From a bacterium (GTDB taxonomy: Bacteria; Patescibacteriota; Minisyncoccia; UBA6257; WO2-44-18): a stretch of 64,000 nt of DNA. A program made the position numbers and the translations under genes. Below are positions 6,351 through 34,984 of the stretch, in pieces (positions within the stretch are counted from its first letter, which is position 1; each line of letters begins with the position of its first letter). The notes beneath the pieces are model-generated. The model had not been told where the DNA came from. It did not search any database and saw nothing but the letters and a program-made list of their open reading frames with translations. The stretch spans positions 12,092 to 76,091 of the forward strand of contig JAUSKF010000002.1 in assembly GCA_030646995.1 (NCBI GenBank). Direction: 5' to 3'.

Positions 6351-6490
6351 CAAAGCGTAGGGAATAGTTTCGAGGAACATGCCGGAGCCCCGACGGCTTG
6401 GTCTTAATAGCCTCGGGGCGAGGGAGAGGCGAAATTGTTCGCTGGAAACAATTTACGCCGTTTCCGAGGGGCTATTCCCGGAGTCCTTGA
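6351..6490. ncRNA. Family B conserved structured element, copy 1 of 2 (unclassified ncRNA or structured repeat)
   Basis: ~95% identical flanks with copy at 34826-34984; internal hairpin differs with compensatory changes (aaattgtt…aacaattt vs aattgagc…gctcaatt). Confidence 0.5.
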
Positions 6491-6547
6491 TTTATAGGTG
6501 ATTTTTTGTTATTTTAATTATCGGCACATACAGAGAAGGAGGAGGCA

Positions 6548-6772
6548 GTGATGGAAAACTTCGAAAAAGAGAATCCCGAAAAGAAGGATCGCTGTGTTGA
6601 TTGTGGTGGCAAGGACGGTGTAGAGAAGCTCTCTGGCAAGACTGTTCCCGCTGGCAGGGAGGTACCGGTTTGTAGGATCTGCAAGGAGTCGCGCGCCGTG
6701 TTCTATCAGAAGAATGAAGTTCCGAAGCCTCTGCCGCAAAATCCCGATGGTCCGAATCGACGCTGTTGTTGA
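6548..6772 (+). CDS. Small zinc-ribbon-like Cys-rich protein
   Basis: Strong RBS GGAGGAGG upstream of ATG; CVDCGG…CRIC…CC motif; 74 aa; terminator follows. Confidence 0.5.
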   Translation: MMENFEKENPEKKDRCVDCGGKDGVEKLSGKTVPAGREVPVCRICKESRAVFYQKNEVPKPLPQNPDGPNRRCC

Positions 6773-6789
6773 AAAATAAGCTGACAAAT

Positions 6790-6822
6790 AAAATACTCCC
6801 ATTTCTGGGAGCCTTTTTTATT
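6790..6822. terminator. Hairpin terminator (between convergent genes)
   Basis: ctcccatttctgggag stem followed by ccttttttatt. Confidence 0.5.
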
Positions 6823-6828
6823 TAGTGG

Positions 6829-7185
6829 TTATTGCTTGGGGGGTTCGGGAGGGGAATCTTCGGATGCATTATCCGTCATTCCAATAATTCTCTTATACCA
6901 CTGGTCATACTTTTCACGCTCCAGATTGGAGGCATCGGCGGGCAGGCGGTAGAGCGTTACCGCAACAAAGTGTTGAGGCTTTTCGCTATTCCAATGACCA
7001 ACGGTCGAAATTTGGTAGCTTACCGGAAACCCAACGTCTTCAGCATGCTTCTTGGCACACAAGCCTTGCAACCAGGCCTCTGATCGTTTGGTGGGGTCGT
7101 GTGTGTTCAAATATTCTTCAAGGCAATTTTTCATTACCTGCGCCCATAGGGACGCGTCCTTGTAGCTGTCGCCGTCGGTTTTCAT
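6829..7185 (-). CDS. Hypothetical protein
   Basis: 118-aa ORF, weak RBS AAGGGA upstream; no recognisable motif. Confidence 0.4.
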   Translation of the reverse strand: MKTDGDSYKDASLWAQVMKNCLEEYLNTHDPTKRSEAWLQGLCAKKHAEDVGFPVSYQISTVGHWNSEKPQHFVAVTLYRLPADASNLEREKYDQWYKRIIGMTDNASEDSPPEPPKQ

Positions 7186-7316
7186 GAGAGTTCCCTTAGA
7201 TGTTCTGCATTTAGACTAACGGATTTTAAAATAATTTACTAACCCGTAATATTCTATTTGTTTTTGGTTGCGCAGCTCTTGGCTAGCCCGCAAACTTTCT
7301 ATAAACTATTTGAATA

Positions 7317-7541
7317 ATGAAGATTGTAGTTACGGCAAAACCAGGGGCAAGAAAAGAGCGGGTAGAGAAAATTTCAGAGACTGAATATATTGTTGCGGTC
7401 AGAGAGCTTCCGGTAGACGGTAAGGCTAATGCCGCAATTTTGGCCGCGCTGGCCGCTTATTTTAAAGTTTCCCGCGCCAATGTCCGGATAGTCATAGGGC
7501 ATACGACTAAAAAAAAGATTATAGGCATAACCGGCATTTAG
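7317..7541 (+). CDS. DUF167 (YggU/UPF0235) family protein
   Basis: MKIVVTAKPGARKERV…VAVRELPVDGKANAAILAALAAYFKVSRANVRIVIGHTTKKK matches the DUF167 consensus. Confidence 0.75.
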   Translation: MKIVVTAKPGARKERVEKISETEYIVAVRELPVDGKANAAILAALAAYFKVSRANVRIVIGHTTKKKIIGITGI

Positions 7542-7578
7542 TGGTATTTTCGTATTAGTAGTTTGAAAGGAGGCGCGA

Positions 7579-8058
7579 TTGAACCGGACTACGGCAAAGT
7601 ACTGGACTAAGAAGGACAGAAAAGCGGTAAAACGCGCGAAAAGTTTCAAGTCACTAGCGAGGATTGCAATCCGCATCATCCGGAGAATGCCGCAACCGGT
7701 CGTCCAGGTTTGCGGACCAATTACCACGGGAGGCGTGGGAACGGTGGCGGGAAATATCGAAATTTTCAAACAGGCCATTAAAAAAGTGCAGAGGTCGGGG
7801 AAAAGCGTTTTTGACCAGCTGCCGTTTGAAAAACCGATTTGGAAAATTATGAAAGATTTTCCACGCAGGTGGGGCAGGCCGAACAAAAAAGACTGCCAAC
7901 TGTTGGATGAATTCTATGGGACTATTTTCCGCTCCGGAGTATTGAAAGAATTGCACTTCATACCTGGTTGGGAATATTCCTTCGGCGCCTGCTGGGAATA
8001 TGGCCTTGGTAATGAGTTGGGGTTAAAGATTGTCACGTTGATTGACAATGTTCGATGA
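7579..8058 (+). CDS. Hypothetical protein (TTG start)
   Basis: AAAGGAGG RBS 7 nt before TTG 7579; 159 aa; basic N-terminus. Confidence 0.4.
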   Translation: MNRTTAKYWTKKDRKAVKRAKSFKSLARIAIRIIRRMPQPVVQVCGPITTGGVGTVAGNIEIFKQAIKKVQRSGKSVFDQLPFEKPIWKIMKDFPRRWGRPNKKDCQLLDEFYGTIFRSGVLKELHFIPGWEYSFGACWEYGLGNELGLKIVTLIDNVR

Positions 8059-8098
8059 TTCTTGCAAAATGCTAATCAGAATATTAAGGAGCGGCCAG

Positions 8099-8437
8099 AT
8101 GAAAGTCATTCCTGCCATGGATTACCCGATTCGGCCGGAAGATATCGACACCGAGCGCTCTTTTCAGAATGCTTTCGGGCATTTTGAAGCAGAAGAAACA
8201 GCCAGAGCGATTGTGCGCTTTTTTCAGCGGGAAGGAGATTGGGGTCCGTTTACCCGCGCTGACGTAATCGAATTTGCTCCCACGGAACTGTGGCCTGTTA
8301 CCCAGCTGATCAAAGGTCCGCACGCCCTCGGTGCGAAATTTATTGAGCGGGATGAATGCGACGAAAAGGTCCATTATGTGACCGGCCAATTCATTGAGCG
8401 TTGCCATCAGGCTTCGCCCGCCGACAAAAGAGTCTAA
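8099..8437 (+). CDS. Hypothetical protein
   Basis: TAAGGAG RBS before ATG 8099 (the track ORF starts earlier at 8042); 112 aa; Rho-independent terminator at 8449-8490. Confidence 0.45.
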   Translation: MKVIPAMDYPIRPEDIDTERSFQNAFGHFEAEETARAIVRFFQREGDWGPFTRADVIEFAPTELWPVTQLIKGPHALGAKFIERDECDEKVHYVTGQFIERCHQASPADKRV

Positions 8438-8751
8438 AAACAAAATCTCCCCCAGCCCCCTATTCCCTCATAAATCTCTGCAGCGATGCGGAGATTTTTT
8501 ATTTAGTACGAGGCTTTTCGGAATGAAGATGTAGACTCTACTTCCATTCCGAAAAACGAAGTAATAAATAAAAAAGATTGCATCCCTCCGGGTTGTGGTT
8601 AAAATTCTTTATTTCTATGTCGTAGAACAATGGGCATAGAGTCTATGCCTCAATATTCTCCTCCTCGAAATAAAGAATTTTACCTCACAACGCTGCGAGA
8701 GCTTATGTGGGAATAGGGGGCCTATCGGGGAGATTTTATTTACCAACTAAC

Positions 8752-8988
8752 CTAGCAGCACTTTCCGCTGTTGGGTTGGCAGCCATCGCAACACTTGCAC
8801 ATTCCCTTGGTCATTTTGGTGACTCCAGCCAAGATTACGATAATCGGCCAGCCAATTTTTACCATTTCGCTAGAAACTACACCCAAAGCTCCCAAGAGAA
8901 AAAGCATACCGAATAGAATCATCCAGATTGCTTTCATGTTGTGGTGGACGCATTTGCAACGCCCGCCTTGTACTATTTCTCCTTCCAT
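8752..8988 (-). CDS. Small membrane protein with Cys-rich C-terminus (possible metal-binding)
   Basis: One TM segment plus C-terminal CKCCDGCQPNSGKCC; 78 aa; no clear RBS. Confidence 0.3.
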   Translation of the reverse strand: MEGEIVQGGRCKCVHHNMKAIWMILFGMLFLLGALGVVSSEMVKIGWPIIVILAGVTKMTKGMCKCCDGCQPNSGKCC

Positions 8989-9091
8989 GGATTATTTTTA
9001 AAATTTGAATTTCGTCGACCTTATAAGTTTATTATACCATCAAACCCTCTTCTGTTATTGTAATAACTGACGGCAAAGGCCGTCATAGATA

Positions 9092-9598
9092 ATGAAATTG
9101 GAGGATCAATTCATAAAATTATACGACGATTTATCCGACGCAATTTTCCGGCATTGCTACTTTCGCGTATTTGAAAAGGAGCGCGCAAAGGAGCTGATGC
9201 AGGAGGTGTTCATCAAAACTTGGGAATATATGAAAAAAGGAGGGAAGATTGATAATCCTAAGGCCTTTCTCTATAAATCGGCGAATAACATAGTAATTGA
9301 TGAATCCCGTAAGAAAAAGGCGGCTTCGCTGGAGGCGATGGAAGAAACAGGATTTAATCCGGCCGATAACACTCACGAACGGCTGCTAAAATTTATCGAG
9401 GGCGGGGAGATGATCCGGCTTTTAAGAAAATTGGAGCCGAAGCACCGGCAGGCAATTTCAATGAAATATATAGACGACCTAGATATTAAAGAGATTGCGG
9501 AGGTGCTCGGAGAAACGGAAAATAACATCACCGTCCGAATCCATCGAGGCTTGAATCAGATAAGAGAAATTCTAAAAGAAAATGGAACAGAAATTTAA
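9092..9598 (+). CDS. ECF-type RNA polymerase sigma-70 family factor
   Basis: Region 2 (…FIKTWEYMKK…) and region 4 HTH (…DIKEIAEVLGETENNITVRIHRGLNQIR). Confidence 0.8.
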   Translation: MKLEDQFIKLYDDLSDAIFRHCYFRVFEKERAKELMQEVFIKTWEYMKKGGKIDNPKAFLYKSANNIVIDESRKKKAASLEAMEETGFNPADNTHERLLKFIEGGEMIRLLRKLEPKHRQAISMKYIDDLDIKEIAEVLGETENNITVRIHRGLNQIREILKENGTEI

Positions 9599-10412
9599 CG
9601 AAATAATTAAAAAAGCGAAAGAAATCCGGATGAAACCGGAAGAAAAATCCGATTTACGGGCGCGTCTTTATGCTGTGGCAAAAGGCGAAGCTGTAATGAG
9701 CGAGCCGGTTAGCCGTCAGGCCAATCAAAGGTCAGTAATTTTTAGATTTTTAAAACCCATGCCAATGTTTGCATCTTTGATGATTGCGCTGTTAGCCGGG
9801 GGAGGGGTCTCTTTCGCATCCGAAAATTCTTTACCGGGGGATATTTTATATCCGATTAAAGTGGGTATTAACGAGGAAATCCGCGCCAAGATCACCCTGT
9901 CCGCCGAAGCAAAGGCTGATTGGGAGGTCCGCAGAGCAGAGCGGAGACTTGAGGAGGCGGAAAAATTGTCCAACAATGGTGAGTTGGATGAGGAAAAGAA
10001 GGCCATAGTGGAAGCTAGATTTGAACAACACGCGGCTAAGGCAGGCCAGCAAGCGGAAAAAAGTGAGGAGCGTGCCTTGGTTAAAGCCAAAGCGAAATCT
10101 CTCGTGAAACTTGAAGCAGTGCTACAAAAGCACGGCCGAATTTTATCCCGTTTAGCAGAAAAAGACTCCATACAGGCCGCGGCTTCCATGAGAGTTGCCG
10201 CTGATGCAGATGTTCAAGCGGAAGCTCCAGTTCAGATTACCGATGACCAAGGTTCACAGGCGGTTCAAAATAAGATTGAGGAAGTTTCAAAATTTTTCTC
10301 CGCTGAAACCAGGGTGCCTGAAGAGTTCAAGGAAGAAATTCGCTATGAGGTAAAATCACTGCTTATACCGAAAAGGATTGAATCGAAAATTAAAGCGGGA
10401 ATAGAGTTGTAA
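9582..10412 (+). CDS. DUF5667-like protein (putative anti-sigma/partner of the ECF sigma), coiled-coil
   Basis: Overlaps sigma gene by 17 nt; TM segment then LPGDILYPIKVGINE… and coiled-coil; paralogue at 40758. Confidence 0.55.
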   Translation: MEQKFNEIIKKAKEIRMKPEEKSDLRARLYAVAKGEAVMSEPVSRQANQRSVIFRFLKPMPMFASLMIALLAGGGVSFASENSLPGDILYPIKVGINEEIRAKITLSAEAKADWEVRRAERRLEEAEKLSNNGELDEEKKAIVEARFEQHAAKAGQQAEKSEERALVKAKAKSLVKLEAVLQKHGRILSRLAEKDSIQAAASMRVAADADVQAEAPVQITDDQGSQAVQNKIEEVSKFFSAETRVPEEFKEEIRYEVKSLLIPKRIESKIKAGIEL

Positions 10413-10434
10413 GGGCGCTGCGTGCTATAATCAG

Positions 10435-10929
10435 GTGATGGTCAAGCATATTATTATTGCTTTGATGACGATTACTGTTGTGAATTGTGGCTCCGGGTTA
10501 GCTCTAGCTCATGGTTCCTTTGAATTGCCACTGGCTGGGTTAACTCCCTCTAATTTTTTCTATTTTCTCGATAGATTAGGCGAAACTCTTAGGGAGATTT
10601 TTGCTTTTAGTCCCGAAGCTAAAGTGAAATTACAGTTAAGCTTTGCCGCCGAACGGGTGGCGGAGCTGGAGTTAGAATTGGAGACGAATGGCGTAGAAGC
10701 AAAGGGCCTTGAGATAGCTCGCAATCGTCTTGCAGAACACATAGTGAGGGGCAATGAAATTATTCACGCAGAAATCGTGAAGGGGAGTGATATGGAAATG
10801 ATTTCTGAGGATTTTGACCATGATCTGAAAGAGCTCCTACAAAGAGCTGAGGAAGGTTCTGATGATTTAACCGCTGAGATAGAAAAAATGGAAGAGTTGT
10901 TGATGATTGAAGACGAGGGGCAAAAATAA
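10435..10929 (+). CDS. Hypothetical secreted/coiled-coil protein (short DUF5667-like)
   Basis: Signal-like N-terminus; LTPSNFFYFLDRLGE… loosely resembles the LPGDxLYPxK block; acidic C-terminus. Confidence 0.4.
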   Translation: MMVKHIIIALMTITVVNCGSGLALAHGSFELPLAGLTPSNFFYFLDRLGETLREIFAFSPEAKVKLQLSFAAERVAELELELETNGVEAKGLEIARNRLAEHIVRGNEIIHAEIVKGSDMEMISEDFDHDLKELLQRAEEGSDDLTAEIEKMEELLMIEDEGQK

Positions 10930-10968
10930 TATAGTATTTAGGTAAAAAAATCCCCTCAAATTAGGGGA

Positions 10969-11042
10969 TGGGCCCGGAGGGAATCGAACCCTCAACCCGC
11001 AGATTATGAGTCCGCTGCTCTGACCTTTTGAGCTACGGGCCT
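10969..11042 (-). tRNA. tRNA-Met (anticodon CAT; A1·C72 mismatch)
   Basis: Reverse complement folds as a cloverleaf: D-arm tagctcaaaaggtcagagc, anticodon loop ctCATaa, T-arm gagggttcgattccctc, acceptor aggcccg/cgggccc. Confidence 0.8.
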
Positions 11043-11057
11043 ACATATTAAGAAGCA

Positions 11058-11127
11058 TGGGCGCAGTGGGAGTTGAACCCACATCTCCGGTGTACGACCG
11101 GATCCTGATAAGTTGGAAGATGCACCC
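11058..11127 (-). tRNA. tRNA-like sequence (non-canonical; possible anticodon GTA, or a pseudogene)
   Basis: Good acceptor (gggtgca/tgcgccc) and T-arm (gtgggttcaactcccac), but irregular D and variable regions; anticodon loop tcGTAca with C33. Confidence 0.35.
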
Positions 11128-11177
11128 ACGCTATGAGGGATTATAGCATAAGGGAAACACTAAGTCAATGATACGTG

Positions 11178-11210
11178 GTACCAGACTTATAAAAAATAAA
11201 TAGAATGGTA
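11178..11210 (+). promoter_or_regulatory. GTACCAGACTTATA…ATGGTA motif (single copy) overlapping the M23 peptidase start codon
   Basis: gtaccagacttataaaaaataaatagaATGgta; same motif in three tandem copies at 48965-49078. Confidence 0.4.
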
Positions 11211-12392
11211 AGAAAAAGAATAATTCTGCTGGGCTTATTTTTGGGGATTGCCGCCGCTATTGTGGTTGCCCAAATTAAACCGGCCGGCCTTATCTTGGAT
11301 CCCTTACAAACAATTCGAATTTCTATCCCGACCGGAGCAACATTCATAGACGCAATGCGTTACCTGGGCGTAGCGACTTCTACCTCTCAATCTATTTTGA
11401 ATTCCGCTCAAGATAAATATAATCTGGCAAAGATTGTGAGCGGCCGGGAGCTGGCCCTTTCCTTCGATGTATTTTCCGGAGATTTAAAGAAAATGGTTTA
11501 TAAAATAGACGTTGATAATCAGTTAATCGTTGAAGACGCAGACTCGGAAGCTGATCCAGAAAATAAGTGGGGGGCAAAAGTTGAACCGATACCTTATGAA
11601 GTACGAGAGCGGTCAGGAGGAGGAGTAATTTCGAAATCATTATATCAAACCATTGTCAGCCAGGGCTTAGATGAGCGTTTAGCGCTGGCGCTAGCGGAGG
11701 CCTTTGCTTGGCAGATAGATTTTGCCACAGATATTCAAGAAGACGACAGTTTCAAAGTTGTCTACGAAGAGCGCTATCTGGATGGAAGATATGTCATGCC
11801 GGGAAGGATCATGGCGGCGAGCTTTATCAATGCGGGCGAATCCTTCAAGGGATATTATTTTGAGGGAACTGAGAAAACTCGCGCCGGTCATTATGATGAG
11901 AACGGCGGGGCTCTGCAGAAAGAATTTTTAAAATCTCCGCTTCAGTATAAATATATCAGCTCCGGATACTCTTTGGCGCGCTATAATCCGATTACCAAAA
12001 AAACATCACCGCATCGCGGCATTGATTATGCCGCTCCATCCGGCACACCCGCGGTTTCCGTTGGCGACGGCACAGTTACCCAGGCCGGCTGGAATGGTTA
12101 CTACGGGATTTCGGTTACTGTACGTCATAACGACACGTATAAAACGGTCTATGGTCATTTTTCTCGCCTAGCCAAGGGGATTAAGGTTGGCGCGAAAGTG
12201 AGTCAGGGTCAGGTTGTCGGCTATGTGGGCTCAACCGGGCTTTCCACAGGCCCCCACCTGCATTATGAAATGCATAAATTCAGTTCTTATGTGAATCCTT
12301 TCAAGGTAGAAATTCCACCGGGCGATCCGGTGAACGAGATGGATCGCGCAGCTTTTGAAAAAGTTGTAAGTAAATATTCGGGAAGCATATAA
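11205..12392 (+). CDS. M23 family metallopeptidase (murein DD-endopeptidase-like)
   Basis: HRGIDYAAPSGTPAVSVGDGTV…GHFSRL…VGYVGSTGLSTGPHLHYEM (HxxxD / HxH M23 motifs); N-terminal TM anchor. Confidence 0.85.
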   Translation: MVRKRIILLGLFLGIAAAIVVAQIKPAGLILDPLQTIRISIPTGATFIDAMRYLGVATSTSQSILNSAQDKYNLAKIVSGRELALSFDVFSGDLKKMVYKIDVDNQLIVEDADSEADPENKWGAKVEPIPYEVRERSGGGVISKSLYQTIVSQGLDERLALALAEAFAWQIDFATDIQEDDSFKVVYEERYLDGRYVMPGRIMAASFINAGESFKGYYFEGTEKTRAGHYDENGGALQKEFLKSPLQYKYISSGYSLARYNPITKKTSPHRGIDYAAPSGTPAVSVGDGTVTQAGWNGYYGISVTVRHNDTYKTVYGHFSRLAKGIKVGAKVSQGQVVGYVGSTGLSTGPHLHYEMHKFSSYVNPFKVEIPPGDPVNEMDRAAFEKVVSKYSGSI

Positions 12393-12393
12393 A

Positions 12394-12415
12394 AACCGCC
12401 GAAGCGGCGGTTTAG
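12394..12415. terminator. Bidirectional hairpin terminator
   Basis: accgccgaagcggcggt stem-loop; T-run on the minus strand. Confidence 0.5.
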
Positions 12416-15285: not shown

Positions 15286-15328
15286 TGTAGGATATTTTTA
15301 TTATTTAAATATTTAAACGTTTAAACCT
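15286..15328 (-). promoter_or_regulatory. Conserved TTTAAA-rich palindromic upstream module (copy upstream of recR; overlaps the dnaB stop)
   Basis: Reverse complement reads TTTAAACGTTTAAATATTTAAATAATAAAAATATCCTACAATG; near-identical modules before cysS, groEL and fusA. Confidence 0.55.
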
Positions 15329-16685
15329 CGGTCGGGCTGACATGAGCTTTATCGATATTTTTAAAGCTGGCTTTTTCTTGGTCGAATCTCAACTCTACCG
15401 CTCCCGTAGGTCCGTTGCGGTGTTTAGCAATAATGACCTGGGCGATATTTTGCTCTTCCGGAGACGGGTTGGCTTTCGTTTTATCCTCGCGATAAAGAAG
15501 CAGTACGATATCCGCGTCCTGTTCGATAGAGCCGGACTCCCGAAGGTCGGCCAGGCGGGGGACTTTACTGTCCCGTTGTTCAACGCCGCGAGATAACTGG
15601 GACAAAGCCAGAATTGGCACATTTAATTCCCGGCCCAGCGCCTTCAGGTTGCGGGAGATTTCTGTAATTTGGTGGACCATATTATCGGAGTGGGTGCGGG
15701 GCTGGATTAACTGCAGATAGTCCACAATCAGCAGACTTAATCCGTGCTCGGCTTGCAGGCGGCGCGCCATTGAGCGCATCTGCAGAATATTCGGAGAAGC
15801 AGTGTCGTCAACGAAGATCGGGGCCTTGGAGAGTTTATCCAAAGCTTCCTGGATCAGCTGGAAGTCGGAATCATCCATTTGTTTCCCGGTGCGTAATTTC
15901 CAAAGTGACACTTCGGATTCGGCGGAGATCAGACGATCAATAACCTGATCCTTGGACATTTCCAGGGAAAAAATACCCACCGGCTTTTGTTCATGGATAC
16001 CGACATGGCGGGCGATATCCAAAGCCAGAGAAGTTTTACCCAAAGACGGGCGGGCGCCGAGGATTATCAGGTCGGAATTGCGCAGTCCGGATAATTTCTG
16101 GTCTAATCCGTAGAAGCCGGTACTCAAACCACCCAGGATCTTTTCGCCACTGTGCAATTTAGCCATTCGTTCGTAAGCTTTCGGCAGTTCTTCGTGGATT
16201 CGGACGAACTTTTGCGGAACGGACCGCTGGGAAATTGAAAAGATTTTTTGCTCAATACTGTCCATCGCCTCCTCAATATCACCTTCCGGATTAAAAGCTT
16301 TTTCAGCAATCTCCGCGGAGGCGCGAATCATATCCCGCAAAATCTTTTTTTCTTTTACGATTTGCGCGTAATGAGCAATGTTGGAGGCGGTCGTAACGCC
16401 GTCCAGCAGGTTACTTAAATAGGTTGACCCGCCGATTTCTTTTAGAAGCCCCTTTTCTTTTAATTCGTTGGAGACGGTGGAAATATCGATTGGTTGGTGC
16501 TTTTCATAAAGACTAAAAATCGCCTCATAGATTTTGGCGTTGCCGGGGTGATAAAAATCAATATGAGACAGCGTATCCGCTACCTGAATAATCGAGCTTT
16601 TGTCGATCATCAAAGATCCGAGCACGGAATTTTCCGCCTCGATGCTTTGTGGAGGCAATTTAAGTTGTGATTTTCCCGAGGGCAT
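15321..16685 (-). CDS. dnaB: Replicative DNA helicase DnaB
   Basis: N-terminal DnaB domain; Walker A GARPSLGKT; …LSQLSR… RecA-like core; 454 aa. Confidence 0.9.
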   Translation of the reverse strand: MPSGKSQLKLPPQSIEAENSVLGSLMIDKSSIIQVADTLSHIDFYHPGNAKIYEAIFSLYEKHQPIDISTVSNELKEKGLLKEIGGSTYLSNLLDGVTTASNIAHYAQIVKEKKILRDMIRASAEIAEKAFNPEGDIEEAMDSIEQKIFSISQRSVPQKFVRIHEELPKAYERMAKLHSGEKILGGLSTGFYGLDQKLSGLRNSDLIILGARPSLGKTSLALDIARHVGIHEQKPVGIFSLEMSKDQVIDRLISAESEVSLWKLRTGKQMDDSDFQLIQEALDKLSKAPIFVDDTASPNILQMRSMARRLQAEHGLSLLIVDYLQLIQPRTHSDNMVHQITEISRNLKALGRELNVPILALSQLSRGVEQRDSKVPRLADLRESGSIEQDADIVLLLYREDKTKANPSPEEQNIAQVIIAKHRNGPTGAVELRFDQEKASFKNIDKAHVSPTEV

Positions 16686-22113: not shown

Positions 22114-23979
22114 ATGGGGAAAATAATCGGCATAGATTTAGGCACTACCTATTCTGAAATAGCGATTACGGAAGCAGGTATACCGAAAATTCTAGAAAAC
22201 GCGGAAGGTATGCGCACCACGCCTTCAATGGTCGCGGTGAATAAAACTAATGAGCGATTGGCCGGACTTTTGGCTAAGCGGCAGGCGATTACTAACCCAA
22301 AGAACACTATTTTTTCGGTAAAGCGTTTAATCGGCCGGAAATTTAGTGACGCAGAAGTTCAGAACGATAAAAAATGGTTGCCTTATGAAATAAAGGAATC
22401 GGCAACTGGAGGCGTTGAGGTGAAGATGGGTGAAGATTGGTATAAGCCGGAAGAAATTTCCGCTATGGTTTTAGCTAAATTGAAAGCTGACGCTGAAGCA
22501 AAACTGGGAGAAAAAATAGATGGAGCGGTTATTACCGTACCTGCATATTTTGATGACAGCCAACGTCAGGCCACTAAAAACGCCGGTGAAATTGCCGGTT
22601 TTAAAGTAGAAAGAATCCTCAATGAGCCAACTGCGGCGGCGCTTGCGTATGGTTTGAATAAAAAGAAAGACGAAAAGATTGTTGTCTATGATTTTGGTGG
22701 AGGAACTTTTGACGTATCTGTGCTGGAAGTAGGGGAGGATAATGGCCAGATTACTGTAGAAGTTAAGGCCACCGGCGGAGATACCCACCTTGGAGGTGAT
22801 GACTTTGATAAGAGAATTATTGAGTATTTAGTTAATGAATATAAAAAGCTTGAAGGAGTGGATCTTTCTAAAGATGCGCTCGCCATTCAGCGCTTAAAAG
22901 AAGCGGCGGAGCGCGCCAAGCATGAGCTATCGGTATCTTTTGAGACTGAAATAAATTTACCCTACGTTACCTCTGATGCTTCCGGACCGCGTCATTTCCT
23001 GATGAAATTTAGCCGAACCAAACTCGAAGAGTTAGTGAGAGGATTAATTGATACTTCAATTTCAATTCTGGATAAAACCATTAAGGAGGCGGGGTATACT
23101 ACGGCCAATATAAACGAGATAGTGCTGGTTGGCGGCCAGACTAGAATGCCCGCAATGCAGGAGGCAGTGAAAAAGTACTTTGGCCGTGAGCCGCATAAAG
23201 AATTAAATCCTGACGAAGTAGTGGCGCTTGGCGCTGCGGTGCAGGCGGAAAATCTATCTGCGAAAGCTGAAGGCCGGACTTCTGAAGGCTCCGTGAAAGA
23301 CATTCTTTTGCTCGACGTTACACCACTTTCTCTTGGTATTGAAACGCTCGGCGGAGTTTTCACTAAACTTATTGATAAAAACACTACCGTTCCAACCACT
23401 AAAGCGCAGGTATTCTCTACCGCTGCGGATAATCAGCCATCCGTGGAAATTCACGTTTTGCAGGGAGAGCGCGAAATCGCTTCGGGAAATAAAACCTTGG
23501 CCAGATTTATGCTGGATGGAATCCCTCCGGCTCCTCGAGGAACCCCGCAGGTTGAAGTTAGCTTTGACATTGACGCTAATGGAATCGTGAGTGTTTCTGC
23601 AAAAGACAAAGCTAGCGGTAAAACCCAAACTGTTCGTATTGAAGCGAATACCAGCTTATCCAAAGAGGAAATCGAAAAACTGAAGGCGGAGGCGGTGCAA
23701 TATGCCGCTGAAGACCGGCAGAAAAAAGAATTAGCAGAAGCAAAAAATAATGCGGAGCATCTGATTTATGCTTCGGAAAAGGCTCTTAAAGACGGCGGCG
23801 AAAAAGTTCCGGCAGATGTTAAAGAGGCAATCACTAAAAAAATTGAGGCTGTGAAAGCGGTCAAAGATGGGCAGGATGCCGCTATGATCAAAACTGCTTC
23901 CGATGCTCTTTCCGTTGAAATTCAGAAAATCGGTCAGGCAATGTATGGCAACCCGCCTAAAGAACCAGAGGCTAAGTAG
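22114..23979 (+). CDS. dnaK: Molecular chaperone DnaK (Hsp70)
   Basis: [27 protein letters not shown] Hsp70 signatures; 621 aa. Confidence 0.95.
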
Positions 23980-28327: not shown

Positions 28328-28332
28328 TTAAT

Positions 28333-29583
28333 TTATATCAGGCTGGTACGCGTAGCAAACATTGCCTTGCTGCGAACCTGGCGGTGATAGCGGATCACGA
28401 AGTTGTGAGTTTGATGAATAGCGCGCTCGATCAACTCTTGAAGTTCTTTTGGCGCTTCGGCCATGCCGATTACTTTGCGATGAGGTTTGGCGTACGAAAC
28501 AAGTCGTATGTCGTCAGTCGTGTGTCGTTTGTGGAATTCGTCCAGTACTCGTTTCGCCGCCCGATATTGGGTAATACCGCCATCGATCACGATCAGATCG
28601 GGATATGGCCATTCGGGATGATTTAAGCGGCGCCCCAAAACCTCACTAATCATCCTCGGGTCGTCACGAGTAGGCGCTGATTTTATCTTAAATTTCCGGT
28701 AAGAGTTTTTATCCGACATCCAAACGCCATCTCGTTTTACCAATACCGTCATCGCTCCTACCGCTTCTTTCCCGGCAAAGTTTGAGTTGTCGTAGCATTC
28801 TATTTTTTGGATATCCAACTCCGAGGGTTTAACGGTATAAGTATTCAAAAATTCTTTGTGCTCAAAGATTCTTTCCAATGCCCAGCGCTCCTTTTCGTCT
28901 TTAAGCGATGCCATAAGCTTTTTGCCCGTGCCATTTAAAACCATTTTTATCGCCCGGATATTCTTCTGATATTGTTTTCTATTCGCAATATTACTTTTCC
29001 AGATTCGCATTACCTGCCTGCCGGCAGGCAGGTTGGCGATTACTCCATCTTTTTTGCAGCAAAAACCGAAGCATTTTCCGATTTGCGCGTTTAAGCAGTC
29101 GCGGAAATGAAGTTGGAAGCAAGAGCAGTAGGGGAATGAGCGGCGAAGTAATTTTAAAACAATCCGCAGGGCGCCACCGTCGGTGAAGGGGCCGATCCGT
29201 GCACGACTAACGACTAACGACGAACGACGATGAAGATTTTCATGCCCAACGACGATTTTCGGGAAGGTGTCCTTTGTAAAGTGGACATAAGAATAAGTCT
29301 TGTCGTCCATCCACAAAACGTTGTATTTCGGCTTTAAAGATTTAATCAGCCGCGATTCTTCTATCAGGGCTTCGATGTCGGAGCGTAAAACCGTGTATTC
29401 CAAATGATCCGCTTCTTCGTGAAGGGACTGGGTTTTCAGGTCGGTAATCTTCAAATACGATTTAAGCCTATTTTTGAGATTAGCCGCCTTTCCTATATAT
29501 AGGACTGCATTGCCCTGATAGAAGGTATAAACTCCTGGTTCGGTGGGTGAGTTTTTAATTTTTTGGATAATTGACTGGTGCAT
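28333..29583 (-). CDS. uvrC: UvrC-like excinuclease, short form (GIY-YIG plus RNase-H-like endonuclease domain, no C-terminal HhH)
   Basis: N-terminal PGVYTFYQGNAVLYIGKAANLKNRLKSYL (GIY-YIG of UvrC); C-terminal …IECYDNSNFAG…PDLIVIDGGITQ… endonuclease V-like block; 416 aa vs ~600 typical. Confidence 0.7.
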   Translation of the reverse strand: MHQSIIQKIKNSPTEPGVYTFYQGNAVLYIGKAANLKNRLKSYLKITDLKTQSLHEEADHLEYTVLRSDIEALIEESRLIKSLKPKYNVLWMDDKTYSYVHFTKDTFPKIVVGHENLHRRSSLVVSRARIGPFTDGGALRIVLKLLRRSFPYCSCFQLHFRDCLNAQIGKCFGFCCKKDGVIANLPAGRQVMRIWKSNIANRKQYQKNIRAIKMVLNGTGKKLMASLKDEKERWALERIFEHKEFLNTYTVKPSELDIQKIECYDNSNFAGKEAVGAMTVLVKRDGVWMSDKNSYRKFKIKSAPTRDDPRMISEVLGRRLNHPEWPYPDLIVIDGGITQYRAAKRVLDEFHKRHTTDDIRLVSYAKPHRKVIGMAEAPKELQELIERAIHQTHNFVIRYHRQVRSKAMFATRTSLI

Positions 29584-29910
29584 ATTGCGCTGGTATTATA
29601 GCCGAAGCTCTCTAAATCTCAAAGGAATAGAATGACTCACGACAAAGATACGTGCCTTAAGAGCGTCGATCTGCTCTTGGGTTGGCCTCTAAAAAAAGCG
29701 CCTCACGAGAAAGTGTTGAAACTATTCGCCGTATCCATATGTGGTTTAACCGTAGAGCGATGTCTTGCGGGCAAGAAAGGAAAACGGTCCGCCGTTTCTG
29801 GGAATCTCGGGAAGATTGCCAATATCTTGTATAAAGAAACTTTGCGAAGGATGGAAATGAAAAACAAAACCCGCTAGTAAGGCGGGATTTTTTATAGAGA
29901 GACTCTCGAA

Positions 29911-30627
29911 TCATTTTTTTTCGGCGATTACTAAACGGATACCGGATTCCTTTCCACCGATTTCCAGAGAAATCACTTTCACCGAGCTCCATTTCGCTTC
30001 ATCGAATAGGTTTAATATGTCAGGCAAAAGAAAATTCATGTAATACATTACGAATTCCGGCTTAATCCAGTGATTGCGTAATTTCATCGTAGCGTCAAAA
30101 GCAAAGTAGGGCCACGCAGAAAGGTGATACCACTTTGGGCGTTCGGCGGTAATGAAGGCGAATTTTCCTTCCCGACGAAGCATCGAGTAAACCACATCAA
30201 TGAATTCTTTCTGCTGGTTCTTTTCGATATGCCCCAGCGCTCCGAAGCAAGTAATCAGATCGAAATCTTTTAGAAACTGGATATCAAAGATGTTTTTACA
30301 CACAAATCGGACTTCAGGCTTGGTGACGGCGGAAAATTTCTTTCTCGCTTCAGCCAGCATCGGCTCGCTCCAGTCGATTCCCACAATTTCTCTTCGGACA
30401 ATTGGCAGCAAGCCTTCAATGCCTGCGCCCGTTCCGGTGCAAAGATCAATCGCATATTCAAAAGGTCCTTCAGTTTTCAGATAATCGGAGGTGGCATCAA
30501 TGATTTCTTTAGGGGTCAGAAATGGCGTGTAGTCAAATTTCGACGCCAGTTGGTCGTAGCCTTCTTTGGTTGAAGAAAGTCCCTGCTTGATCAATTCTCG
30601 CAGGCTCGGTCCTTTTGGATGAAACAT
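29911..30627 (-). CDS. Class I SAM-dependent methyltransferase
   Basis: Motif I DLCTGTGAG, motif post-I …VGIDWSEPML…; start at ATG 30627 chosen because the longer track ORF (to 30765) runs into tRNA-Ser; an alternative TTG start at ~30672 would add a TM segment. Confidence 0.65.
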   Translation of the reverse strand: MFHPKGPSLRELIKQGLSSTKEGYDQLASKFDYTPFLTPKEIIDATSDYLKTEGPFEYAIDLCTGTGAGIEGLLPIVRREIVGIDWSEPMLAEARKKFSAVTKPEVRFVCKNIFDIQFLKDFDLITCFGALGHIEKNQQKEFIDVVYSMLRREGKFAFITAERPKWYHLSAWPYFAFDATMKLRNHWIKPEFVMYYMNFLLPDILNLFDEAKWSSVKVISLEIGGKESGIRLVIAEKK

Positions 30628-30718
30628 TTGTTTTCTCGATTCAAAAAACTGAATAAAATATACCGCTAATTCACCAAGCAAAGCAATCAAAAACACCCGT
30701 TTGAGGTGTTTTTTATTT

Positions 30719-30808
30719 TGGCGGAAGCGGAAGGATTCGAACCTTCGGAACCCTTTCGGGTTCAACGCATTAGCAGTGCGCTGCTTTCGGCCGCTCAGCC
30801 ACGCTTCC
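30719..30808 (-). tRNA. tRNA-Ser (anticodon GCT), CCA encoded
   Basis: Reverse complement: ggaagcgtggctgagcggccgaaagcagcgcactGCTaatgcgttgaacccgaaagggttccgaaggttcgaatccttccgcttccgcca; class II long variable arm. Confidence 0.85.
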
Positions 30809-31019
30809 GTATATATTTATTTTCTCGGCAGAGCCTCGATCAAAAATCAGGGGAATCGTGTCTGCCCGGGTTGCCCTTGCAACCCGTTGAATGCCACATA
30901 GCCATTCAACCCACGCTTCCAAAACTTTCTATATAATAACAGTCTTTTTGCAATTTTGCCAGATTTCTCATACTATCAGCGTAGCCGTTTGATGGTGCGT
31001 AATAACAAAGGAGGCCAGA

Positions 31020-31597
31020 TGCAAACGGAATCCTGGCATAGATGGATTACTGACATTACACTTGATATTCCGGCTGGCACAATTCTGGGAGCTATTCAGG
31101 AAATGGTACGGATCTCCAGGTTTTCCAATGCCAGAGTGCATGCGGATATTAACGATATTTGGATGTGTGTAAGCCCAGACGAGACATCGCTAGAGGTAAT
31201 GGAACTCTACAAGCAGGCAAATAGAGAAAGAAATCTGGCGGAAAAAGCGAGGAGAAAAAAGAAGCCCTGCTACAAACGCGAAGTACTGTACGCTGACGCA
31301 AAGATGGAGATTGTGCGTATCGTCTGGCTTCCCGGTTCAAAAAGTCGTCCGCATGATCACGGAAAATCTCATGGAGTAACGATTGTCTTGAAGGGTTCAG
31401 TCTTCGAGAAAGTATTCGACAAGAAAACAAAAATGTTCCTGCGGAGTGAAATCCATCCGGCCAACCTCAATGCATCCTTTGATGAGTCGCCCCGCCTGAT
31501 TCACATCATCGGCAACGCCCGCCCTGATATGGAAGCGATCACCCTCCATATCTATATGCCTCCGCTGAAAATGAAATTCTACGACGACCTCGCCTAA
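31020..31597 (+). CDS. Cupin-domain protein (cysteine-dioxygenase-like fold)
   Basis: AAAGGAGG RBS then ATG 31020; PHDHGKSHGVTIVLKG and later His residues form a cupin metal site. Confidence 0.45.
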
Positions 31598-31626
31598 TCG
31601 CGAGGTTTTTTGTTAATATTACAGGA

Positions 31627-32586
31627 ATGAAAGAATCTCCGAAAAAAATTCGCATCGCCGTATTAATCGGCGGGCCGTCGGCGGAATATGACGTGTCGCT
31701 GAAAACCGGTGGGCAAATTCTCACCAACTTAGATCACGATAAGTATCAGGCGCGGGCTATTGTAATCTCCAAAAATGGAAACTGGCCGATGAAGCCATCG
31801 GAGATAAAAAAGAAATTCGACCTCGCCTTTATTGCGATGCACGGAGAATATGGAGAAGACGGCACCGTCCAAAAGATTTTGGATAAATACCGGATTAAAT
31901 ACACCGGCTCCGGAGCCAGGGCTAGCGCTCTGGGAATGGATAAGGTTTTGTCGTCAAAGATTTTCACAAAAGCCGGTCTAAGTGTCCCGCAGTTTTCTTT
32001 ATTGAAAATCAAGAATGGCAATCTCGCTCCCAGCGATACTAGGCAATCACTTTTCCATCTTCCGGTTGTGGTAAAGCCAACCGACAGGGGATCGAGTGCC
32101 GGTACGATGGTTGTGAAAAAGGTGCAGGATCTTCTTCCGGCAATTCAAAAAGCGGCCAAGTTTTCCGAGAATATAATGATTCAAAAATATATTGAGGGCA
32201 GGGAATTCACCTGCGGAGTAATTGAGGTCAAAGGAAAACTAAAAGCCCTTCCACCTACGGAGATTGTGCCGAAGCTCCGAGGATTCTTCGATTACTATTC
32301 AAAATATACTTCGGGCGCTTCCCGAGAAATTACGCCGCCGAGAATTTCCCGCAAAGAGATGAAAAAGATCCAAGCCCAATCACTGAAAGCACATCGCGCA
32401 ATCAGGGCAAAAGGAATGTCCCGCACAGATTTTATGCAAAACGAAGATGGCAAGCTGTATGTGCTGGAAATTAATACCATTCCGGGTATGACCGCCACTA
32501 GTTTACTGCCTCAAGAAGCCCGAGCGGCCGGAATTGAGTTCCCAAAACTGTTGGATTTGATTATTGCTTCGGCACTGGCGAAATAA
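31627..32586 (+). CDS. ddl: D-alanine--D-alanine ligase
   Basis: IRIAVLIGGPSAEYDVSLKTG… N-domain and ATP-grasp C-domain (…EINTIPGMT…); 319 aa. Confidence 0.85.
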   Translation: MKESPKKIRIAVLIGGPSAEYDVSLKTGGQILTNLDHDKYQARAIVISKNGNWPMKPSEIKKKFDLAFIAMHGEYGEDGTVQKILDKYRIKYTGSGARASALGMDKVLSSKIFTKAGLSVPQFSLLKIKNGNLAPSDTRQSLFHLPVVVKPTDRGSSAGTMVVKKVQDLLPAIQKAAKFSENIMIQKYIEGREFTCGVIEVKGKLKALPPTEIVPKLRGFFDYYSKYTSGASREITPPRISRKEMKKIQAQSLKAHRAIRAKGMSRTDFMQNEDGKLYVLEINTIPGMTATSLLPQEARAAGIEFPKLLDLIIASALAK

Positions 32587-32643
32587 CTGGATTTGTGCTA
32601 ATATAGGCAGGTTGTTTGACATATTTTTAATGAGGAGAATCCG

Positions 32644-33600
32644 GTGATCAAGCTCGTAATCGAGCCAGGGGTTAAAAAGACATGGGAGCAATTTCTTGCC
32701 GAAAATCCGCCCTTTTCTATCGGTATCGATGGTTATGTGAATGCGCCGCCACTCCTTTCTGAAAAAGGTCCCCATCTTAATCTCGACCACCACGAAGGCG
32801 TAGATCGACTCGCCACTTACAGTACTTGCAAGCAGATGATGCTTGCTATCAATGGGCGACTTTTCAGAACCTTCCAAAAAGATGGAGTTCCGACAGCAAC
32901 GCTTTTCGGAAATGACTGCGATCAGGATGTTTGGGTTGTTGACGCAACGATCAATCATCACGAACGTTTTGTCGGCGCGAAAAGCGAACCGAGGTTGAGG
33001 CAGTTGATTGACGTGGTTGATCTGCTAGACACCACCGGCGGACTTTACCTGATGGATATTAATTCCCGACTTCGCAAAGAAGTGAACTGGATTTTTCACC
33101 CCTATACCGAAGCCCGGACAAGCGGCACGCTTGAGAAAATGACAGGTGAAGAAATGGTCAACCTTGTGAAGTTGGGCGGGCGGAGAATTATTGATTATGC
33201 AAACGGCAGAGGTGGGCAAATTGAACCTGATACGCGCCACAAGATACGTCACAAGGGAAATGGCTGGGTGATGTTTGAGGAAATCGGAGCTGATGCCCGA
33301 TACAAGGTTTGTATGGAGGGAGACGGCGCTTACGTGATGATTAAAGAGGGAGGCAGTAGTAGCCGTTTCCATTATTCTGTAGGACGAATTTCCAAGTTTG
33401 TTCCCTTTCCGGTCAGAGAGATTATTAATGCTCTCAATGCCGTGGAGGGACCCACGGTGGTAATGGAAAAAACACACCGACCCACTTGGGGTGGTTCGGA
33501 CATTATTGGTGGTTCACCAAGGGTGTTTGGCAGCTGTCTGACACCTGAAGAAGTAATTAAAATCGTTGAAGAAGTTTTAGCAAAAACAGGCCCCGCTTAG
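32644..33600 (+). CDS. Hypothetical protein (GTG start)
   Basis: GAGGAG RBS 10 nt before GTG; 318 aa; contains LNLDHHEGVDR (possible metal-binding) but no assignable family. Confidence 0.45.
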   Translation: MIKLVIEPGVKKTWEQFLAENPPFSIGIDGYVNAPPLLSEKGPHLNLDHHEGVDRLATYSTCKQMMLAINGRLFRTFQKDGVPTATLFGNDCDQDVWVVDATINHHERFVGAKSEPRLRQLIDVVDLLDTTGGLYLMDINSRLRKEVNWIFHPYTEARTSGTLEKMTGEEMVNLVKLGGRRIIDYANGRGGQIEPDTRHKIRHKGNGWVMFEEIGADARYKVCMEGDGAYVMIKEGGSSSRFHYSVGRISKFVPFPVREIINALNAVEGPTVVMEKTHRPTWGGSDIIGGSPRVFGSCLTPEEVIKIVEEVLAKTGPA

Positions 33601-33666
33601 CGGGGTTTTTTATTGCTCGCCACTCCCTACTTAATACTCACTACTTACTACTGTATACTTATCTTT

Positions 33667-34146
33667 ATGGACCCCGAAAAGAAAATCTACTGGAGCGCGC
33701 CCGAGTTTGAATATCACGAAAAAACTCATGTTTGGTTTTGGATGATTGTGATTGGGGTAATCGCTATGGTTGCTGTAGCCCTCATTCAAAAGAACATTCT
33801 TTTTGCAATTTTTGCTGTCTTAGCAGGAGTTCTGGTGTTGCAGTGGGGGAAGACCAAGCCGGATTACGTAGATTTTCAATTAGATGAAGTGGGGATTAGC
33901 GTGGGCGGAAAAAATCCGCATCCATGGCAAGAATTTTCCGGCTTTGCGATTCACCGGCTTCATCACGAAGAAGAGGGGCTTTCCGAGTTAGTACTCCAGC
34001 GCACCGGCAGTCTTGGAACGCATTGGAAATTTCTGGTGCCAAATAAAGACGTGGATAGGGTCCGCCATTTCTCCAACCAGCATTTACATGAAATTGAATT
34101 TGAAGATTCGCTAATTGAGCACATCTCGCGCCTGTTGCGCTTCTAG
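33667..34146 (+). CDS. Hypothetical membrane protein (2 TM plus soluble domain)
   Basis: ATG 33667 (MDPEKKIYW…); hairpin-loop membrane anchor then ~100-aa soluble domain; start uncertain (track ORF from 33613). Confidence 0.4.
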   Translation: MDPEKKIYWSAPEFEYHEKTHVWFWMIVIGVIAMVAVALIQKNILFAIFAVLAGVLVLQWGKTKPDYVDFQLDEVGISVGGKNPHPWQEFSGFAIHRLHHEEEGLSELVLQRTGSLGTHWKFLVPNKDVDRVRHFSNQHLHEIEFEDSLIEHISRLLRF

Positions 34147-34180
34147 CTAAAAGTTGTAAAATACGTAAAGTTAGAAATAA

Positions 34181-34252
34181 GCCCTCGTCGTTCAATGGTT
34201 AGGACGCAAGATTGCGGATCTTGCGATTGTGGTTCGATTCCACACGAGGGCA
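34181..34252 (+). tRNA. tRNA-Arg (anticodon read as GCG; identity tentative)
   Basis: gccctcg-tc-gttcaatggttaggac-g-caaga-ttGCGga-tcttg-cgatt-gtggttcgattccac-acgagggc-a cloverleaf. Confidence 0.7.
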
Positions 34253-34431
34253 CAAAGTTACTCAAATAGTTCTCTCGCATCACCAGAGCTCTTTTTGGCC
34301 AGCGCCAAAAATGCTCTTTTCTCTCGGCGATTTACTCCGACTTAGCGTCGGAGACCGGCTAAATCACCTCCGAGATATGCTGCTCAAAAACTATTCTCGC
34401 TGTTGGGAAAATCAGCGAAGCGAGACCCCTG

Positions 34432-34450
34432 TTCCACACGAGGGCACAAA
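34432..34450 (+). repeat. 19-bp direct repeat of the tRNA-Arg 3' end (att-like duplication)
   Basis: ttccacacgagggcacaaa at 34239-34257 and again at 34432-34450. Confidence 0.7.
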
Positions 34451-34518
34451 TATAAAACTAGTTTTGCTATCCTTTATTTAGCTCCTTAATTAAGGACACC
34501 TACCTATGAGGTGCCCCG

Positions 34519-34737
34519 ATGAATGAGATAGCAGACGACATCCTGATGATTGCAAAAGTCTTCGCCGCATCGATTGTTGGGTTCTTGGTATTGGCGGGAT
34601 TCTTCGCGGCAGGGGAGGCCGAGGCTATTCTTTATGGCCTTCTAATACTCGCTAACATCCTCCTCGCAACCTTAATTTCCGTGACTGCTATGGTAATTAT
34701 GATTCTGCTGGGAGGTAGGTTTTGCCGGTTATTTTAG
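34519..34737 (+). CDS. Small hypothetical membrane protein
   Basis: 72 aa, two hydrophobic helices; terminator immediately downstream. Confidence 0.35.
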   Translation: MNEIADDILMIAKVFAASIVGFLVLAGFFAAGEAEAILYGLLILANILLATLISVTAMVIMILLGGRFCRLF

Positions 34738-34764
34738 GCCCCTTTTTTGGGGTCTATTTTTGTC
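34738..34764 (+). terminator. Rho-independent terminator
   Basis: ggccccttttttggggtc followed by T-run. Confidence 0.6.
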
Positions 34765-34825
34765 CCCGAATTAAACAAAGCGAATAAGGCTTTACCCCAA
34801 TGCTCTGAATAAGATTCCGTTCCCT

Positions 34826-34984
34826 CAAAGCGCAGGGAATAGTTTCGAGGAACGTGCCGGAGCCCCGACGGCTTGGTCTTATTAGCGTCGGGGCGAGGGA
34901 GAGGCAAATTGAGCCGCAGGCTTGCCCGCCTTAGGCGGGAGCTCAATTATGCCGTTTCCGAGGGGCTATTCCTGGAGCCCTTGA
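34826..34984. ncRNA. Family B conserved structured element, copy 2 of 2
   Basis: Flanks ~95% identical to 6351-6490; central hairpin replaced by a longer hairpin with compensatory pairing. Confidence 0.5.

Follow-up and report, generated by a model that had tools for sequence, protein, structure and literature searches.

A non-coding element of 140–160 nt occurs in three copies in the 64-kb window analysed here (the whole 64,000-nucleotide stretch of contig JAUSKF010000002.1), and further copies are found in related groundwater bacteria. Every copy folds independently into a common Y-shaped three-way junction, and the best reading is that the element represents an undescribed non-coding family, i.e., a new structured-RNA family of a broadly known kind, the structured interspersed repeats. 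As to how such copies come to be where they are, we favour, at about an even chance, a non-autonomous element of the insertion type, with selection acting on its RNA fold; its transcription, its movement, and its mobilisation in trans by an enzyme encoded elsewhere are what we infer on that reading. The three copies in the window are the following.

6351..6488, forward strand: copy 1, recognised by sequence alignment, fold, and covariance model
34826..34982, forward strand: copy 2, with the same architecture as copy 1 (alignment, fold, and covariance model)
34256..34404, reverse strand: copy 3, divergent and full length, recognised by covariance-model search and by its own fold

Copies 1 and 2 had been reported in a first-pass annotation of the window as a pair with 5′ and 3′ parts some 95% identical, and alignment bears this out: identity outside one hairpin is ~95%, and three diagnostic 19–22-mers each occur exactly twice in the 64 kb, against an expectation of 0–0.04. 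Six differing positions flank the central hairpin in the pairwise alignment. Each of these substitutions falls at an unpaired site, turns a G-C pair into G.U, or converts a C.C mismatch into C-G, and since the position is unpaired or the pair is kept, all six are structurally neutral. The annotation had counted exactly two copies, thereby overlooking the divergent, full-length copy 3 (34404–34256 on the reverse strand). This copy was recovered at 36 bits (E ~1e-8) by a covariance model built without it—from copy 1, copy 2, and a homologue designated L012—and run over the window with filters off; blastn finds no link between copy 3 and the other copies, the divergence being too great.

L012 is a true homologue that came from one metagenome scan and lies on contig OBEQ011583753.1 (minus strand, 2750–2612). 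The genes beside it led, through protein-cluster look-ups, to further contigs: L018, which has the same arrangement as L012; L016/L019 (GCA_964503795.1), in which a copy scoring 108 bits occupies a different locus from that of L012; and L020, which carries a variant of the L016/L019 copy. The evidence base for the family is thus six distinct sequences (the three window copies, L012/L018, L016/L019, and L020) from three related lineages, with scores of 85–158 bits. A hairpin resembling the second hairpin of the element also stands at the end of contig L010 (1807–1776, minus strand, 21 bits), where the contig end cuts it; it may be a further divergent member.

Wider searches returned nothing more. 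A scan of genome contigs with TTCGAGGAACNTGCCGGAGCC gave five matches, all of them chance occurrences in coding sequence; three scans of viral contigs gave one, zero, and one match, both by chance; and blastn against phages and plasmids gave no match to the element. A chimeric six-frame peptide query, meant to pick up any spurious open reading frame (ORF) calls over the element, had zero matches, and the idea of a conserved small peptide was dropped, as reading frames differ among copies and stop codons are present. A synteny search with the zinc-ribbon ORF next to copy 1 showed it to be an orphan ORF, and exact look-ups of the 72-aa and GNAT proteins encoded beside copies 2 and 1 found the same sample only. 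The annotation had been unable to match the element to any known RNA family, and Rfam 15 agrees: at gathering thresholds only tRNAs are found in the whole window, and permissive scans of four loci gave only noise, at no more than 21 bits against thresholds of 39–79. Riboswitches, HEARO, 6S RNA, signal recognition particle (SRP) RNA, transfer-messenger RNA, RNase P, Y RNA, pRNA, and ribozymes are accordingly without an Rfam 15 match to the element. Group II intron domain 5, the K-turn, hammerhead and other ribozyme cores, 5S RNA, SRP RNA, Y RNA, and phi29 pRNA were also considered as identities and set aside, with neither a motif nor an Rfam match.

The common fold is best described from the outside inwards. 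Outermost is a short pairing of CAAAG with CUUUG/CUUGA, followed by a G.A-rich internal loop. The closing helix, P1, then comprises 11–12 bp of almost invariant sequence (AAUAG/CUAUU, then a run of U.G pairs), and beyond it a symmetric tandem G.A loop leads into P2, so that P1 has G.A loops on both sides. Two hairpins form the arms of the Y: hairpin 1 stands on a conserved GGA/GA internal loop and ends in the loop GGUCU (GGCUC in L016/L020), and hairpin 2 has a bulged A and the loop CRYWGGA. In both hairpins, the stems co-vary freely and the loops are conserved. The pairing of the outer ends, which the annotation had already proposed, is confirmed (GGGAAUAGUUUC with GGGGCUAUUCCC). The parts of copy 1, together with hairpin 2 of copy 2, are placed as follows.

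6351..6359, forward strand: 5′ tail of copy 1
6360..6371 with 6468..6479, forward strand: P1 of copy 1
6372..6373 and 6466..6467, forward strand: tandem G.A of copy 1
6374..6377 with 6462..6465, forward strand: P2 of copy 1
6387..6419, forward strand: hairpin 1 of copy 1, with UGGUCUU in the loop
6428..6459, forward strand: hairpin 2 of copy 1, with the loop CGCUGGA
6480..6488, forward strand: 3′ tail of copy 1
34903..34953, forward strand: hairpin 2 of copy 2, with an extra hairpin of ~20 nt in its loop (34920..34940)

It is in hairpin 2 that copies 1 and 2 part company, and the annotation had described this as a hairpin swapped with perfect covariation. That description is overstated. No more than the distal two to three pairs differ (UU/AA in copy 1 versus AGC/GCU in copy 2); the two copies have an identical hairpin base (GGC, then AAUUG/CAAUU), and the tip has been remodelled and has received an insertion, the extra hairpin CCCGCC-UUA-GGCGGG at 34925–34939. 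Hairpin 2 of L012 is an intermediate form between the two.

On the sense strand, copies 1 and 2 fold at −60.9 and −71.2 kcal/mol, respectively (z-scores −3.9 and −2.2). Copy 3 folds at −63.4 kcal/mol with a z-score of −6.75, its minimum-energy fold making up 49% of the ensemble and its antisense strand reaching −42.5 kcal/mol. A by-eye check for kissing of the two conserved loops, or for pairing between loop and tail, revealed no convincing complementarity.

The annotation's central proposal—that this is a structured nucleic-acid element—is supported by the further homologues: covariation is weak from copies 1 and 2 alone and becomes strong once these are added. Of the pair cells in the model alignment of six sequences, 96.1% hold standard pairs, compared with 74.7% in shuffles (none of 500 reaching the observed value) and 34%–49% when the partners are slid, and changes on both sides are present in 27 of the 44 pairs. 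This alignment was fitted to the model, and its counts for P1 are therefore inflated; those for the hairpins agree with a hand alignment. In the latter, which is sequence-anchored and covers four copies, 21 helix positions show compensatory double changes, with 8 of 9 positions in the stem of hairpin 1 and 10 of 13 in hairpin 2. A small-scale instance is seen at a single locus, where hairpin 2 of L016 and that of L020 differ by two A-U to G-C swaps. Our conclusion is that a folded single strand is what selection acts on.

Whether that strand is RNA or DNA is addressed by the G.U pairs, of which each copy has four to six. In every case folding is more favourable for the sense strand than for the antisense strand, the energies for four copies being −60.7/−48.4, −71.1/−62.2, −59.9/−52.9, and −63.4/−42.5 kcal/mol (sense/antisense). 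With DNA parameters, the architecture is unchanged and the strand asymmetry is much smaller. Because it is the sense strand that the G.U pairs favour, the element more probably takes the form of RNA.

Evidence for insertion comes in part from the flanks of the copies, among them copy 3, which abuts and is antisense to a tRNA-Arg gene.

34181..34253, forward strand: tRNA-Arg(GCG) gene, intact, with its 3′ end duplicated either side of copy 3
34238..34256, forward strand: first direct repeat, TTCCACACGAGGGCACAAA, running from the tRNA-Arg T-loop to the 3′ end, plus CAAA (4 nt past the gene)
34432..34450, forward strand: second direct repeat, TTCCACACGAGGGCACAAA, a duplicate of the tRNA 3′ end, displaced to 27 nt past the 5′ end of copy 3

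The repeat is exact at 19 of 19 positions, and no more than 2e-4 of random window positions do as well. The insert comes to 175 bp, and its 19-nt core is lacking at the other copies. Just past the second repeat lies a further sequence, AAAACTAGTTTTGCT (34454–34468, forward strand), which matches the 5′ end of copy 3 (34387–34401), taken as its reverse complement, at 80% identity; the likeness is not significant against shuffles and is probably due to chance.

Copy 1 begins 21 nt past the stop codon of a GNAT gene and is likewise set between repeats, in this case of the end of that gene.

6318..6342, forward strand: left direct repeat of copy 1, CTCGATCTCTAGGTTTTGATTTTTT, comprising the last three GNAT codons and the stop codon (L D L stop)
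6486..6507, forward strand: right direct repeat of copy 1, CTTGATTTATAGG-TGATTTTTT, beginning at the last bases of copy 1

These repeats are identical at 19 of 22 positions, with a 3-nt gap (shuffle P ~0.008). CTC GAT CTC TAG in the left repeat and CTT GAT TTA TAG in the right both read L-D-L-stop, and all three mismatches are synonymous, as would be expected of a duplicated gene end in which drift had since been confined to the still-translated copy. Within the right repeat, TTGATT is also the −35-like box of a weak site resembling a promoter (TTGATT-17-TATTTT) before the 74-aa zinc-ribbon ORF; this site was read by eye (8 of 12 matches) and was not flagged by the scan. The repeats at copies 1 and 3 are mutually unrelated and hence look like target duplications rather than a shared attachment core. 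In the neighbourhood of copy 1, 0.5 kb upstream, an 81-aa stand-alone GIY-YIG nuclease-domain protein is encoded on the reverse strand (5580–5825), and none is seen near the other copies.

Copy 2 lies between a 72-aa ORF and a 147-aa ORF, and two features at its borders can be compared with relatives.

34768..34825, forward strand: unique 58-nt stretch from the 72-aa ORF terminator to copy 2, absent from the orthologous spacer of relatives
34981..35010, forward strand: sigma-70-like promoter of the 147-aa ORF, TTGACA-18-TATTAT with TG, 11 of 12 consensus positions

The promoter starts at the final bases of copy 2; its orthologue is found in contigs L008 and L010, in which the order is 72-aa ORF, terminator, promoter, conserved 5′ untranslated region (UTR), and 147-aa ORF homologue, without the element. 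The annotation had placed the latter gene, as a GC-rich foreign ORF, within a tRNA-bounded micro-island. In relatives, however, the 72-aa and 147-aa ORFs are syntenic beside tRNA-His and groES/groEL, and because the gene order is the same, the 147-aa ORF is not a foreign island gene. The 58-nt stretch shows no similarity to any other sequence compared, and an origin of this and the 27-nt 'leader' of copy 3 as decayed older copies or carried-over sequence was rejected for lack of significant similarity among the sequences compared. Separately from the element, the 5′ UTR of the 147-aa ORF family contains a conserved hairpin, GCGTTCCGAC...GTCGAGAAT, in the window (35040–35080, forward strand) and in L011 (150–190), though the proteins have diverged (67% identity over less than half of the query); judged from sequence, this hairpin may be a cis-regulatory leader of the family.

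In the relatives, filled and empty sites can be set side by side. The convergent gene pair that flanks the L012/L018 copy is found without it in L016 and L017, with a ZIP protein at least 90% identical and an empty spacer of 31 nt that holds only a bidirectional terminator; in L012, the 3′ end of the copy overlaps the stop codon of the convergent ZIP-family gene. The copy in L016 is located between the terminator of a protease gene and the rpsL promoter (GCCA|TTTACA-17-TACTAT). Copies sit at the edges of transcription units, and their location differs between related genomes. The suggestion in the annotation of a mobile element with inverted ends and a link to tRNA genes gains support from these filled and empty sites and from the position of copy 3 at tRNA-Arg within a 19-nt repeat.

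The geometry of the flanking repeats is constant relative to the polarity of the element: the left repeat lies upstream of the element 5′ end, and the right repeat begins with the TT after ...GGAGYCC or ...GAGUAAC. At each of the five right junctions the sequence is TT[G/T][A/G] (TTGA, TTGA, TTTA, TTTG, and TTTA), and three of the five are the −35 box of the next gene. Candidate repeats are also seen at L016 (ATTTA-AAA versus ATTTACAAA, ~8 nt with an indel) and at L012 (TTTCAGG versus TTTAGG, ~6 nt with an indel; not significant alone).

The element also coincides with breaks. Synteny between L016 and L020 is lost inside it (L020 4270–4386 versus L016 300–150 on the reverse strand): the two have in common the left flank and two-thirds of the element, counted from its 5′ end, and diverge in the 3′ part, which leads to rpsL in the one and to a gene on the opposite strand in the other; L020 also has an additional ~13 nt (AAGCAAUGCGACC) ahead of the 3′ strand of P1. 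On the sequence comparison, this break has the appearance of a rearrangement between copies of the element. In the source sample, short-read contigs (Logan, SRR13727527) begin or end inside copies 1 and 3 (L002 start, L015 end, and L014 start), as would fit breaks in the assembly graph due to the repeat or its hairpins.

In the mechanism that we propose, spread or persistence of the element would depend on its RNA fold, and the copies would be dispersed insertions as opposed to fixed genes or leaders. Several would lie between duplicated stretches of target sequence, by which the 3′ end of the neighbouring gene is preserved, and the mobilising enzyme would be supplied in trans from elsewhere in the genome.

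A number of observations weigh against this explanation. Promoter and terminator scans found neither a sigma-70-like promoter upstream nor an intrinsic terminator downstream of any copy, and clear consensus promoters and terminators are present at neighbouring genes in those genomes. Some 40 ORFs of the window were compared with Pfam without a transposase, integrase, reverse transcriptase, TnpB, or Cas gene being found; the scanned ORFs are housekeeping genes (DnaB, CysRS, DnaK/J, GroES/EL, IMPDH, UvrC, and others). The flanking repeats are non-uniform, at 19, ~22, ~8 (with an indel), and ~6 nt (with an indel), and copy 2 has no flanking direct repeat at all. Unrelated spacers ('leaders') of 9, 27, and 58 nt precede the conserved 5′ end of the three window copies, setting it off from the left repeat, and few copies are seen. 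The empty sites belong to diverged genomes, so that loss is indistinguishable from gain, and deeply conserved folds and loops are also to be expected of a functional cellular RNA.

That last expectation is the ground for the rival that survives best, in which the copies are paralogous small-RNA genes acting in trans, perhaps by binding a protein, with the G.A loops and hairpin loops as recognition sites; their scatter would then reflect gene duplication and loss, and the repeat at the tRNA gene would be unrelated. Such genes would account well for the strong conservation of fold, junctions, and loops while the stems vary, for the strand-specific G.U pairs, for the very well-defined fold of copy 3 (the z-score of −6.75), and for the retention of the element in at least three lineages. 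They would be harder to reconcile with copies that, unlike the neighbouring genes, have no promoter or terminator of their own, with a location that varies between close relatives, and with the duplicated adjacent gene ends that flank two copies. Moreover, the best-conserved part is the closing helix, not a single-stranded seed. We regard this explanation as tentative and rather unlikely.

Less likely still is the proposal that the element is structured single-stranded DNA, serving as the substrate or end of a DNA mobile element—of IS200/IS605 type, attC-like, or forming the arms of a tRNA-targeting miniature integrative element. DNA parameters predict the same architecture, the closing helix, with its conserved sequence, resembles a terminal inverted repeat, and the 19-nt repeat of copy 3 spans the T-loop to the end of tRNA-Arg. 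The three to four consecutive U.G pairs in P1 and the large gap between sense and antisense strands, however, suit RNA better, and the unrelated repeats of copies 1 and 3 leave no common attachment core. The core motifs of integron attC sites are absent (GAGGAAC and GTTTCCG do not fit RYYYAAC...GTTRRRY), as are a cassette array and intI. IS200/IS605 elements make no target duplication, whereas duplications are present here, and the sequences that flank the element on its 5′ side (ATAAC, TCCCT, CAGGC, TTCCC, and TAAAA) have no conserved target motif in common; the ~40 window ORFs scanned also include no integrase, TnpA, or Cas1 gene and none of the genes of IS200/IS605 or a TnpB guide-RNA system. 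Two further kinds of system were considered in this connection. The neighbours of the element (GNAT, the zinc-ribbon ORF, the 72-aa and 147-aa ORFs, and tRNA, with no reverse transcriptase) are not those of a retron msr-msd, and the template and variable repeat pair of a diversity-generating retroelement was rejected, as the differences between copies are not adenine-specific.

A cis-regulatory leader or riboswitch for the downstream ORFs, which the annotation's placement of both copies in 5′ intergenic regions would suggest and for which a structured junction upstream of ORFs at copies 1 and 2 can be cited, is highly improbable and essentially excluded by promoter positions: the downstream promoter begins after the element at copy 2 and L016, L008 and L010 keep the same promoter, UTR, and gene without the element, the L012 copy is directed towards the stop codon of a convergent gene, the orientation of copy 3 is antisense to a tRNA gene, and the downstream genes (zinc-ribbon ORF, 147-aa membrane ORF, and rpsL) are unrelated and share no expression platform.

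For the insertion-type reading, comparison with described systems is informative in both directions. The repeat bcr1 of the Bacillus cereus group is a transcribed element ~155 bp long, flanked by direct repeats and not conserved in its distribution, and compensatory changes keep its cruciform-like RNA, which has a closing stem and two independent stem-loops (PMC3184786; PMC6542083). In kind, the element resembles bcr1, its closest described analogue: it too is of ~155-bp scale, lacks an ORF, is intergenic, and has direct repeats, and its distribution varies among relatives while compensatory changes maintain its RNA fold. By contrast, the flanking repeat of bcr1 is a fixed TTTAT of 5 bp and its copies number tens per genome, whereas the element has few copies and repeats of 19 and ~22 nt that duplicate gene ends; the lack of a TTTAT duplication and the unrelated host lineage set it apart from bcr1 as described.

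Transposable elements of the miniature inverted-repeat type (MITEs) such as ERIC, Correia/nemis, and RUP share with the element a small size, non-coding sequence, inverted ends, an intergenic position beside promoters or terminators, and an RNA fold (PMC2229807, PMC3184786, PMC11602168). Terminal inverted repeats of the length required of MITEs (at least 10–15 bp) are indeed present (GGGAATAGTTTC with GGGGCTATTCCC, and the outer CAAAG with CTTTG/CTTGA), and the sequence of these inverted ends is conserved across copies. MITEs are, however, defined by a partner transposase and by a short target duplication of fixed length, 2–10 bp (PMC11602168). Neither is seen with the element: among the ~40 window ORFs there is no partner transposase or insertion sequence with the same ends, and no fixed 2–10 bp duplication directly flanks the inverted repeats. 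Covarying interior hairpins and a G.U strand bias, both found here, are likewise not expected of an element recognised as double-stranded DNA.

A repeat spanning the tRNA T-loop to the 3′ end is the classic integrase attachment pattern, as in tyrosine-integrase islands, and copy 3 is similarly bracketed by a duplicated T-loop-to-3′ end with the tRNA left intact. Casposons also duplicate 15 bp (occasionally 16–22 bp) overlapping a tRNA 3′ end (PMC5137440). The element differs from both in that the insert measures only 175 bp and no integrase or Cas1 was found among the window ORFs scanned, and its other copies lie off tRNA genes, with different repeats or none.

In eukaryotes, short interspersed nuclear elements (SINEs) spread by retroposition of a structured RNA, the products of which have a precise 3′ end, variable 5′ extra sequence, and duplications that vary up to ~20 bp. 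The element shares short homology between its 3′ end and the start of the duplication, with right junctions of the form TT[G/T][A/G]. This precise 3′ end, the variable 5′ extra sequence, and the long, variable duplications (19 and ~22 nt) make target-primed insertion a better fit than cut-and-paste. That the element is a bacterial counterpart of SINEs, a structured RNA copied into DNA—or else is inserted via staggered nicks ~20 bp apart or by a Cas1/casposase-like enzyme—is nonetheless an unlikely proposition. To our knowledge, target-primed retroposition of the SINE type has never been shown in bacteria; no reverse transcriptase was identified, and the comparison is drawn from five loci.

Elsewhere in the window, beside tRNA-Met (10966–11043), there is a weak tRNA-like match on the reverse strand (11058–11127; Rfam tRNA, 33 bits, just above threshold) that is not called by ARAGORN and may be a degenerate or unusual second tRNA. 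An extracytoplasmic function (ECF)-type sigma factor is followed by two DUF5667 proteins (9092–10929), with a third DUF5667 paralogue 30 kb away (40758–41642). GroEL (36462–38081), DnaK (22114–23979), and DnaB (15321–16685) are each the sole member of their 90%-identity cluster among ~15 billion proteins, and the host is a very sparsely sampled singleton lineage.

If the reading is true, this deeply branching, poorly sampled groundwater lineage would have yielded a new, well-supported structured RNA family, and with it a small element in which selection acts on the RNA fold and yet genomic behaviour is insertion-like. The element breaks assemblies and marks a rearrangement point, and the covariance model built here allows it to be mapped. 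Long duplications that rebuild the 3′ ends of genes, together with landing at −35 boxes, lie outside standard MITE biology, and these unusual signatures could lead to an unrecognised bacterial integration mechanism.

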